Notes under the pieces: generated by a model
The model's input: only the letters and a program-made list of their open reading frames with translations
Told to the model about the DNA's origin: nothing
Databases searched by the model: none
Made by a program: the position numbers and the translations under genes
DNA from: Pirellulales bacterium
GTDB lineage: Bacteria; Planctomycetota; Planctomycetia; Pirellulales; UBA1268
Reading direction: 5' to 3'
NCBI GenBank assembly: GCA_044369655.1
Contig: JBILWX010000001.1
Location: 56,133-120,132, forward strand
Length of the DNA stretch: 64,000 bases
In this document: positions 4,430 to 43,662 of the stretch, piece after piece
Position numbering within the stretch: the first letter of the stretch is position 1
How the letters are laid out: each line of letters begins with the position of its first letter

Positions 4430-5218
4430 ATGAACACCGCCGACATGCCCCCAAACTTTTCCCGCCACGAACAATTTCTCCGCATCTTCGCCCTGCTCGA
4501 GATCCTGTCGACCACCCGACAGCCGCTGGATGATCAGGCCCTGATCGCCGCCCTCAAGGAGCGGCTCGGCCTGACGCGGCTGTCGGCACGCACGCTGCAC
4601 CGCGACTGCGACTTCCTCCAGTCTTGTGGGTATCCCATCGACCATGCCCCGCTGCCGGGAGACCGCCGCTATGGCTGGCAGTTGTCGAAAACCTCGGCCA
4701 CCGAGAAGCGGGTGCCGGTCGAGCCGCTCACGCTCCTCGAACTCGTCGCCTTCGCCATGGGCCGCGAACTGCTGCGGGCCTTCGAGGGAACGGTGCTCTG
4801 GACCGGGATCGAATCGCTGCGGCACAAGCTCGAGCGCGATCTGCCGGCGGCGATGCTCGGGCAGCTTGCTGACGCCAAGCGGGTGTTTCAGGTCGAGGGC
4901 GTCGATCCCTCCCGGTATGCGTCACGGCCCCGCCTGATCTCGACGCTCACCAACGCCATCACCGAGTGCCGTGAGATCGATGTCGAGGAACGCGTAGAGG
5001 GTGACGGCCCGACCGTGCGGCATCGGCTTCAGCCCCATCGACTGGTGATCCGGCCGCCGGCCGTTCAGCTCCTCGGCTTTCTCGCCCGCTCGGCGGAGGA
5101 CGAGCCGCCGATGCTGCTCGACCTGTCGCGGATCGAGAAAGTCGTGCTGCTCGACGCGACCTTCGTGCCGCGGGCTCTCGAGAGCGACCACGATGCTGGC
5201 CAGTCTCCAGAGGCGTAG
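4430..5218 (+). CDS. HTH + WYL domain transcriptional regulator
   Basis: N-terminal winged HTH (FLRIFALLEILSTTRQPLDDQALIAALKERLGLTRLSARTLHRDCDFLQSCGYPI) and a C-terminal WYL-type beta domain (HRLQPHRLVIRPPAVQLLGFL). I trimmed the ORF-track start at 3896 to the ATG at 4430. Confidence 0.75.
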   Translation: MNTADMPPNFSRHEQFLRIFALLEILSTTRQPLDDQALIAALKERLGLTRLSARTLHRDCDFLQSCGYPIDHAPLPGDRRYGWQLSKTSATEKRVPVEPLTLLELVAFAMGRELLRAFEGTVLWTGIESLRHKLERDLPAAMLGQLADAKRVFQVEGVDPSRYASRPRLISTLTNAITECREIDVEERVEGDGPTVRHRLQPHRLVIRPPAVQLLGFLARSAEDEPPMLLDLSRIEKVVLLDATFVPRALESDHDAGQSPEA

Positions 5219-5331
5219 CCCCGCGGGCTTACTCCAACCCCGCGGGCTTACTCCAACCCCGCGGGCTTACTCCAACCCCGCGGGCTTACTCCAACCCCGC
5301 GGGCTTACTCCAACCCCGCGGGCTTACTCCA
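5219..5331. repeat. Perfect 19-bp tandem repeat, about 6 copies, unit CCCCGCGGGCTTACTCCAA
   Basis: Read directly: units start at 5219, 5238, 5257, 5276, 5295 and 5314 (last copy 18/19). Each unit contains the palindrome CCCGCGGG. The array fills the whole gap between two convergent stop codons. Confidence 0.95.
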
Positions 5332-5785
5332 TGAGGCCGAGATCCTCGTTGTAGCCCTCCTGCACGACGGCGTTTTCACGCCGTTCGTGGGCCGTCATAT
5401 GGGCGGAAAACAGCTCGAAGGCCTGGTCGGCCCGGTGCCAGGCAGCGGCCGCCGTCGGGGCCGCCTCGAGTTCCCGGATCACGCCGTCCAATTCCGCCAG
5501 CAGTGACGGGTGCTGGCCGAGAATCGACCGCACCGCCGCCGAGAGTCGGGGCATGCGGGCCACCGATTCTTCGAGAAAGCCACCTTGCTCCTCTTGCGCA
5601 AAATGCTCGGCGAGATGCTGCCGCAACTCGTGCAGGCAGGCGAGCAGGGCTCTGCGGCGGTCGGGAGTCGGCGGTCCGGCCGCCGCAAATGCCGACCGGA
5701 CCGAGAGCATCAGGTTGAACAGATCGCGATGCTCGGCGAGCACGTGTCCGAGGATCACCGGGTCGGAACGATCGATCGATGCCAT
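5324..5785 (-). CDS. Hemerythrin-like (HHE cation-binding) domain protein
   Basis: Helical protein with spaced H/E motifs (HLAEHFAQEE, HMTAHERRE). Start chosen at MASIDRSD. The stop TAA lies inside the last 19-bp repeat unit. Confidence 0.6.
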   Translation of the reverse strand: MASIDRSDPVILGHVLAEHRDLFNLMLSVRSAFAAAGPPTPDRRRALLACLHELRQHLAEHFAQEEQGGFLEESVARMPRLSAAVRSILGQHPSLLAELDGVIRELEAAPTAAAAWHRADQAFELFSAHMTAHERRENAVVQEGYNEDLGLME

Positions 5786-5997
5786 GGGAACGATGCTCCG
5801 TGAATCGAGGGCCAATCGCACTCGCAAAGAGCCTCGGGAAAACCGTCCAGCGCGGATGCCATTTGGCGAGGACTCTCCGCCGTCGAAAGCATATGATCGC
5901 AGGATCCCGCGGCGCTCGCCCGGGCCGCAGGCTGCGACTGGCATGCAGGCGCGAGCGCGAAGACACTTGGGTGAAACCGGCTGAGGAGTCTGATGCC

Positions 5998-10763: not shown

Positions 10764-11249
10764 ATGAGACGCATGCTGGGAATCGCAAGGGTGGCCGCCG
10801 TGGTGGCGATTGCCACCACGCTGGGGACGGTTTCCGTGGCCCAGCCGCCGGACCGGCCGGAGGGGCCTCCCGATCGTGAGGGCCGGGCCGAAGGCCGGGA
10901 GGCTCGTGAAGACCGGAGGCCGGGCGGTGCTCGCGAGGGACGTGCCGGCCCTGGAGGTGTCCGCGAGGGACGCGGTGGGCCCGGTGGGCCACGCGAGGGT
11001 CGCGGCGGTCCGGGTGGGCCACCGTCGCCCGAGCGGTTCGTCGAACACGCCATGAAGTTCGATGCCGACGGCGATGGCAAACTCGACCGCGGCGAATTGA
11101 CCAAGTTCGCGGAGGAGATCCAGCGGATGCGCGGCGGGGCGGGCGGCCGGGGCGGCCCCGGCGGGCGTGGCCCCGGTGGCCCTGGTGGGTTTGGCGGCCC
11201 GGATGGACCGAGTGGTGGCGGCGGTGCGAGGCCGCCGGTGCCGGAATAA
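10764..11249 (+). CDS. Secreted EF-hand calcium-binding protein with Gly/Pro/Arg-rich repeats
   Basis: Signal peptide, canonical EF loop [12 protein letters not shown], and three REGRxGPGG repeats. Confidence 0.65.
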
Positions 11250-13691: not shown

Positions 13692-13825
13692 ACGGCATGA
13701 GTTTCCTCGCTACGGCAGGATAGCCTCATGCTCGGAATCCTCATGCCGATCCCTTCGCCAGTCCGTGGTGGGGCCGGTGGTGGAGCCCGTGGTGGGCTAA
13801 GGGAATCCACGCGATCCGCATGTGT

Positions 13826-43583: not shown

Positions 43584-43598
43584 GCTGACCCCGCTCGG

Positions 43599-43662
43599 CC
43601 GAGATTTACCCTAGCCGAGATTTACCCTAGCCGAGATTTACCCTAGCCGAGATTTACCCTAT
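43599..43662. repeat. 16-bp tandem repeat, 4 copies, unit CCGAGATTTACCCTAG
   Basis: Read directly: units start at 43599, 43615, 43631 and 43647 (last copy 15/16). The sigma-factor stop codon (CTA on the plus strand, 43659-43661) lies in the last unit. Confidence 0.95.

Follow-up and report, generated by a model that had tools for sequence, protein, structure and literature searches.

A 19-bp tandem array between convergent regulator and hemerythrin genes of a lake planctomycete, most likely a young slippage-born minisatellite

What fills the space between two convergent genes when that space consists entirely of a short repeat? In the DNA analysed here, a stretch of 64,000 nucleotides with a G+C content of 67.6% (hereafter the window), the genes for a transcriptional regulator and a hemerythrin point towards each other, and everything between their stop codons belongs to a tandem array of a 19-bp unit. 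Such an array might be a set of binding sites for a protein, an RNA element acting at the 3' ends of both genes, a switch based on copy number, or the product of polymerase slippage. Taken alone the locus has little weight, as one more bacterial variable-number tandem repeat (VNTR). Its interest resides in its metagenome alleles, an unusually complete stepwise record of a minisatellite that appears to have been born from a 10-nt convergent gap and then to have expanded, and in the removal of a tempting and unsupported story, that of an iteron array bound by a WYL protein.

The array and its two neighbouring genes

TRF describes the array (Table 1) with a period of 19, 5.9 copies, 100% matches, and a score of 226. 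A pattern search and a unit-by-unit print resolve it into five exact copies followed by a sixth that deviates solely at its final base (T instead of A at 5332), just as the initial annotation of this DNA had described. The unit reads CCCCGCGGGCTTACTCCAA on the plus strand and TGGAGTAAGCCCGCGGGGT in the direction of the hemerythrin gene. Six matches to this 19-mer were observed against ~0.05 expected by chance, and the search for further copies that had been proposed as a check found it to be local, with no other copy at up to three mismatches in the 64-kb window. A scan of the metagenome_contigs collection with two consecutive units gave no match, this collection evidently being without the population concerned. 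The head-to-tail arrangement, the unit length within the range of ~10-100 nt, and the copy number beyond chance are those of a VNTR or minisatellite, and a CRISPR array could be ruled out because the units are contiguous and devoid of spacers.

The stop codon of the regulator (TAG, 5216-5218) directly adjoins the array, and the 105 nt that separate it from the stop codon of the hemerythrin gene (TAA, 5324-5326) are array sequence throughout. On the minus strand, the end of the hemerythrin gene (...ATG GAG TAA) overlaps the first unit to be read, so that two bases of the ATG codon, the GAG codon, and the TAA stop have been co-duplicated into every unit. Reading of the sequence thus bears out the earlier statement that the array starts right after the regulator and ends within the hemerythrin gene, to which it supplies the stop codon; it does so because this codon lay within the duplicated segment. 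Since 19 is not divisible by three, duplication of the stop codon has placed stops in all three minus-strand frames of the array; the plus-strand frames have none. Every unit also holds the palindrome CCCGCGGG. Both the palindrome and the minus-strand stops had been noted before, and they are visible in the unit-by-unit print. Each unit had further been described as an SD-like GGAG followed by a stop, which stands as far as the sequence itself is concerned, but the GGAG is part of the Met-Glu codons of hemerythrin and no ORF follows it.

An artefact of the window's single assembly is excluded because the six-copy array recurs in contigs from three other metagenome samples (L001, L002, and L068), whose identity to the window is 99.5-99.97%. 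Misassembly is a well-known risk with short tandem repeats, and two Logan contigs (k=31) do end within this one. However, the fact that the window and three samples assembled separately all show the same six-copy array, together with the graded and sequence-distinct alleles described below, makes it scarcely conceivable that the array was created by assembly.

The plus-strand neighbour is probably a YafY/WYL-type regulator, an assignment supported by Pfam matches and by the names given to its homologues. The matches all lie below threshold (HTH_11 0.008, HTH_PafC 0.08, and WYL 0.017), with that to WYL covering 66 of the 70 profile positions and with the matches following one another in the canonical order of WYL regulators. 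The source records of the homologues call them “transcriptional regulator YafY” or “WYL domain-containing protein”, and PF13280 is present in two. A profile search with the regulator against PDB sequences retrieved chance-level matches only. Gene boundaries were taken from homology and from the JGI gene calls, which likewise contain a 262-aa regulator product. The hemerythrin is found as an identical protein on 12 metagenome contigs. A gene map based on GC3 was discarded, as it assigned both the regulator and the hemerythrin to the opposite strand, misled by antisense frames in DNA of high G+C content. The neighbouring genes encode M16 peptidases, a DUF155 protein, a sigma factor, a formyltransferase, and a methyltransferase, which amounts to a chromosomal housekeeping environment.

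Table 1. Position of the array, its flanking genes, and the two other main arrays in the window
Feature	Position	Strand	Evidence	Context
YafY/WYL-type HTH regulator (putative), 262 aa	4430..5218	+	Translation, sub-threshold Pfam, homologue names, JGI gene calls	
19-bp minisatellite, 5.9 perfect copies	5219..5331	.	TRF, pattern search, unit-by-unit print	
Array/hemerythrin overlap: part of ATG, GAG, TAA	5324..5331	-	Sequence reading, allele series	
Hemerythrin (HHE cation-binding domain), 153 aa	5324..5785	-	Translation, Pfam PF01814 (E=3.9e-7)	
15 bp x6.5 array, unit CTCAGGGGTGCAGGG, 98% identity	13595..13691	.		Saccharopine-dehydrogenase-like / Orn/DAP decarboxylase genes, same strand
16 bp x4 perfect array, unit GCCGAGATTTACCCTA	43598..43661	.	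TRF	Most of the SurA-like rotamase/sigma-70 convergent gap

Alleles of the gap and its counterparts in relatives

Alleles were collected from a cluster of regulators at 90% identity (P0001, 14 members) and from contigs with the identical hemerythrin; the gaps were read on the hemerythrin strand, from TAA to CTA, and ordered by their flank mismatches to the window, counted over the 462 nt of the hemerythrin gene and the 219 nt of the regulator 3' end (given here in this order). The most distant members (L061-63, 49/28 mismatches) have a gap of 34 nt with no clear repeat, and L065 (13/20) has a gap of 24 nt with two degenerate cores, AAGCCYGCGG. L064 (12/14) contains two copies, TGGAATAAGCCCGCCGGG TGGAAGAAGCCCGCCGGG, with a period of 18 and one mismatch; its core is CGCCGGG and the TAA of the second copy has become GAA. 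In L004 and L005 (0-1/12-13) there are ~2.5 copies, again of period 18, with the core GCCCGCAGGG (CGCAGGG), whereas the period is 19 in L008 (2/7), which has two perfect copies with the core GCCCGCGGGG, in L007 (0/2), which has four copies, one of them with a G-to-A SNP in the core, and in the six perfect copies shared by the window, L001, L002, and L068 (0-2/0). The hemerythrin protein is identical across L001-L009. Contigs with identical hemerythrin and flanks diverging by 0-6% therefore carry 6, 4, 2, or ~2.5 copies, the variation that defines a VNTR, although all copy numbers except that of the window come from short-read metagenome assemblies, which are prone to collapse tandem repeats, and each single count is provisional. 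Differences among the alleles in unit sequence, SNPs, and flanks argue that they are real and that the series is not a collapse artefact. The comparison of copy number across strains, suggested beforehand as a way to recognise VNTR behaviour, thus revealed variation among close strains, as read from these short-read assemblies, and no copy at all in sister species, in agreement with the recent slippage expansion that had been proposed.

The unit is of local origin, as is typical of VNTRs: it corresponds to the 5 nt that end the hemerythrin coding sequence (TGGAG), the TAA, and the ancestral 10-nt gap (GCCCGCNGGG), and the window contains no second site for it. Whatever the number of copies, both stop codons are preserved in all alleles. 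The seventh base of the core is G, A, or C depending on the strain but uniform across the copies within a strain, and the copies therefore appear to evolve in concert through repeated contraction and expansion. Three other samples show the 6-copy allele unchanged, and the array therefore does not seem to be hypermutable on the sampled time scale. In metagenome time series, the locus could be used to tell apart strains of this lake planctomycete population.

Outside the species cluster, MAGs with the labels Planctomycetia and Pirellulales come closest (81-84% protein identity), the Pirellulales one coming from a lake time series, and a metagenome profile search added 44 orthologous loci with 55-80% identity. 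The convergent regulator/hemerythrin pair is kept in almost all of these related loci, usually with 13-54 nt of unique sequence from stop to stop (20 unique bases in L010); in some of them the two genes overlap. None of the ~25 related lineages that keep the gene pair has the 19-mer array. The array is thus a recent addition in one species-level lineage, since its relatives are devoid of the 19-mer. Other repeats do occur in the same gap. L023, a different species (68-72% protein identity), possesses a 16 bp x3.2 array of CCAGACGCCGGTCACT at 1524-1574 that includes the GAG-TGA end of its hemerythrin gene; its unit is unrelated and the array independent. L011, a sister species, has a 73-nt direct repeat in two copies (2561-2721, 88-bp spacing, 99% identity) within a 279-nt gap; the repeat ends exactly at the hemerythrin stop and contains the hairpin CCCCGGGTGGGAACCCGGGG in each copy. 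We dropped the idea that this gap is a special hotspot: arrays occur throughout the clade at about one per 15-20 kb, or one in 14 gaps, and chance placement at this density roughly accounts for repeats in ~3 of 25 lineages, so that no hotspot is needed. In one clade (L026-L040 and L048), the gap reaches 408-426 nt and contains an extra small minus-strand CxxCH gene downstream of the hemerythrin gene; in L039 (3790-4200), this small gene in the regulator/hemerythrin gap carries a CxxCH haem-binding motif.

We consider that the array is most likely a slippage-born, essentially neutral, and young intergenic VNTR specific to this lineage. Its history would have begun with the tandem duplication of an 18-nt segment made up of the hemerythrin end, the stop codon, and the whole 10-nt gap. 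The gain of one T would have turned the period from 18 into 19, and slipped-strand mispairing, which we infer to be the mechanism, would then have taken the array from 2 copies through 4 to 6 in the strain lineage of the window. A duplication across the 3' end of a gene would be harmless, the first copy to be read keeping the normal codons and the stop, and repeated contraction and expansion would keep the copies identical. Because one hemerythrin copy is intact and the regulator stop lies outside the array, changes in copy number are expected to alter neither a protein nor a promoter; with no effect on protein, promoter, or ribosome-binding site, selection would therefore not remove them. Convergent gaps would be safe places for arrays to persist for the same reasons, since the gene ends remain intact and no promoter or ribosome-binding site is involved.

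The flanks of the array differ markedly in their divergence. Among strains, the hemerythrin gene is near-invariant (0-2 mismatches over 462 nt) while the adjacent regulator and the upstream region differ by 3-8%. In L005, for instance, the regulator gene is 91.5% identical to that of the window over 650 nt and the hemerythrin gene is almost unchanged, a situation comparable to that of L008. An invariant hemerythrin amid diverged flanks suggests either recombination with its breakpoint in or close to the array, or a sweep confined to this gene. On the other side of the hemerythrin gene, upstream of its start (~5816-5827), L004, L005, and L008 have ~53 extra nt that include a 19-nt tandem duplication (CTTGGCCCTCGATTCCACG / CTTGGCCCTCGATTCACGG), an indel polymorphism located in the divergent hemerythrin/DUF155 promoter region.

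Hairpins, operator sites, and copy-number switching

The quasi-palindromic, G+C-rich cores of neighbouring units would be able to pair as a hairpin, which probably stabilises slipped intermediates and would favour growth once the core is the perfect palindrome CCCGCGGG. With DNA parameters, the hairpin formed by a two-unit gap is predicted at -14.2 kcal/mol for the type found in the window, versus -11, -9, and -8.9 kcal/mol for the non-palindromic alleles with ~2 copies. The alleles suggest accordingly that the palindromic core aids growth, and hairpin-stabilised slippage may have favoured expansion after the core became palindromic, the number of alleles from which this can be judged being small.

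The same hairpins might instead be functional, with the array acting as a bidirectional terminator lacking a U-tract, or as a REP-like stabiliser of 3' ends, and with its cores under selection. The position of the array is precisely the one expected of a terminator shared by the two genes. For RNA of either strand, a strong fold is predicted (-91.4 and -69.1 kcal/mol, z = -4.2 and -3.1), with nested or neighbouring 8-bp G+C helices, and every allele of the species cluster, including those with 2 copies, is predicted to form a gap hairpin (z = -2.5 to -3.9). Such RNA could act on transcription, by pausing or ending it, or shield 3' ends. Nevertheless, a terminator consensus scan of positions 4800-5900 found no site, the stems being devoid of a T-run after them, and Rfam yielded no family match, its two hits being at chance level (18.4 bits against a gathering threshold of 70 and 12.5 against 535). 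The gap hairpin is not a conserved element, since most related lineages show a z of about 0 for this gap; an ancient conserved terminator that later expanded was rejected on these grounds, most related gaps being without a significant fold. The 15-bp and 16-bp arrays of the window and the array that L023 has in the same gap do not fold either (z about 0), the SNP of L007 breaks one palindrome, and a single hairpin would be enough, which leaves six copies unexplained. For these reasons we regard a functional set of hairpins as unlikely.

Two known classes of elements can be compared with the array. Rho-independent bidirectional terminators share with the array the convergent position and the potential for G+C-rich stems on both strands; by contrast, the array lacks a U/T tract, offers a six-fold repeat instead of a single hairpin, and has mostly hairpin-free gaps as its orthologous counterparts. 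With REP and BIME elements it has in common a G+C-rich palindromic core, a convergent 3' intergenic site, and possible RNA hairpins. REPs are dispersed elements with conserved sequence tags, present in tens to hundreds of copies per genome, whereas the 19-bp unit occupies one locus of the 64-kb window and its palindrome is not conserved among strains.

The palindrome also underlies the proposal, made in the initial annotation, that the array consists of iteron-like operators to which the neighbouring YafY/WYL regulator, or some other protein, would bind. A palindromic octamer that returns at a regular 19-bp spacing beside a transcription-factor gene does invite this reading. However, the array occupies the 3' side of both genes and not a promoter, and it is missing at all orthologous loci outside the species cluster although these retain the regulator (55-84% identity), that is, in the ~25 lineages mentioned above. 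The palindrome is itself missing in sister strains, whose cores are CGCAGGG or CGCCGGG, and seems to be a lineage-specific accident, as one variable core base creates it. Moreover, the octamer occurs elsewhere in the window at chance frequency (7 found versus 8.6 expected), with none of these sites upstream of the regulator gene, copy number varies freely, and the gene lists show no rep gene, origin, or plasmid context within +/-6 kb. True iterons, the Rep-bound repeats of plasmid and phage origins, resemble the array as tandem direct repeats of ~19-22 bp, but the 19-bp copies are contiguous without spacers, have chromosomal housekeeping neighbours, and are not conserved across relatives. A conserved protein-binding or regulatory site is thus not supported, and the operator proposal, which we abandon, appears very improbable.

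A role for copy number itself would make the array a contingency or phase-variation locus that tunes a neighbouring gene through readthrough, antisense transcription, or spacing. Copy number is indeed polymorphic among strains, and bacterial intergenic VNTRs reportedly sometimes tune the expression of neighbouring genes (Zhou et al. 2014, cited in PMC9426551). Here, however, a change in copy number touches no promoter, ribosome-binding site, or coding frame, both stops are kept in every allele, and the 6-copy allele is stable over three other samples, unlike the within-population switching of contingency loci. We give such a switch very little credence.

Array richness of the lineage and likeness to known repeats

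The array is not the only one of its kind: TRF reports two others in the window (Table 1), both near-perfect and with units unrelated to the 19-mer. The initial annotation had drawn a parallel with a 16-bp array located far downstream, and this parallel is well founded: that array also lies in a convergent gap, also supplies a stop codon, its final CTA being the TAG stop of the sigma-70 gene, and also varies in copy number, with 4 copies in the window, L057, L058, and L059 and 3 in L060, one of them with a SNP. For the sigma-factor gene, a start giving 513 aa is on record; a start giving 573 aa is not.

The related loci, ~195 kb in total, contain at least 8 further arrays with unrelated units of 11-24 bp, and the perfect ones among them sit in 5', divergent, and convergent gaps. 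Several differ between close relatives. The 12-mer GCATATTGTTGG is repeated 8 times in L045 and L047 (2081-2176) and 10 times in L046 (1377-1496) and is absent from L044, whereas CGTCGATGGGCGACTT forms 4.9 copies in L013 (491-568) versus ~2 degenerate copies in the near-identical L014 (about 2780-2815). Over the sampled sequence, the density of perfect arrays is ~40-50 per Mb. For bacteria, a survey of satellites in prokaryotes gives a maximum of ~23/Mb, with 4/Mb in Rhodopirellula (Subirana & Messeguer 2019, PMC6749651), so that the density found here is roughly twice the highest tabulated bacterial ones, a comparison between a small sample and a survey with different criteria. Lake Planctomycetota have disproportionately many structural variants according to a long-read study (Okazaki et al. 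2022, PMC9426551), and their non-coding deletions often fall at intergenic tandem repeats and have been ascribed to polymerase slippage (PMC9426551). The 19-bp array, whose host shares ecology and taxonomic group with the organisms of that study, is one instance of the intergenic richness of this group of freshwater Planctomycetes in perfect, copy-number-variable arrays, and it gives sequence-level documentation of a trait of lake Planctomycetota, their “intergenic plasticity”, mentioned only in passing by long-read work. A stronger version would combine exceptional birth and turnover of minisatellites in this clade with a function, the arrays of convergent gaps serving as expanded quasi-palindromic hairpins, either bidirectional terminators without a U-tract or stabilisers of 3' RNA ends, whose copy number tunes insulation between the convergent genes; we hold this extended version to be rather doubtful.

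Among known systems, the array is closest to bacterial VNTRs such as the MIRU-VNTR of Mycobacterium tuberculosis and the VNTRs of Burkholderia pseudomallei and, more specifically, to the polymorphic repeats that Okazaki et al. described between genes of lake Planctomycetota. It shares with them the head-to-tail intergenic arrangement, a unit of 10-30 nt, a copy number that varies among strains, homogenised copies, and a likely origin by polymerase slippage. It differs from them in that its unit includes the last codons and the stop codon of a gene and in that the locus offers a near-complete birth series, from a unique gap to two copies of 18 nt, two of 19 nt, four, and finally six. MIRU elements, moreover, constitute a dispersed family; the 19-bp unit, which has a single locus in the 64-kb window, is probably not part of one.

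Some arrays of the clade are located 5' of genes, and there the number of copies could influence expression. One of them, a 13-bp array of GACGCACACCACA in L021 (254-295, 3.2 copies), reaches the ATG of the regulator. In the window, the 15-bp array lies upstream of the Orn/DAP decarboxylase gene (JGI start 13548) and in frame with an upstream ATG at 13698, from which it would encode an N-terminal (LSPAP)x6 extension. With a 15-nt unit, gain or loss of copies leaves the reading frame unchanged, and one of the very few differences between the window and L056 (99.97% identical) falls inside this array. The window also contains a degenerate 30-bp x3 repeat with 79% matches at 10932-11022 and several short G+C-rich repeats at 11131-11188.
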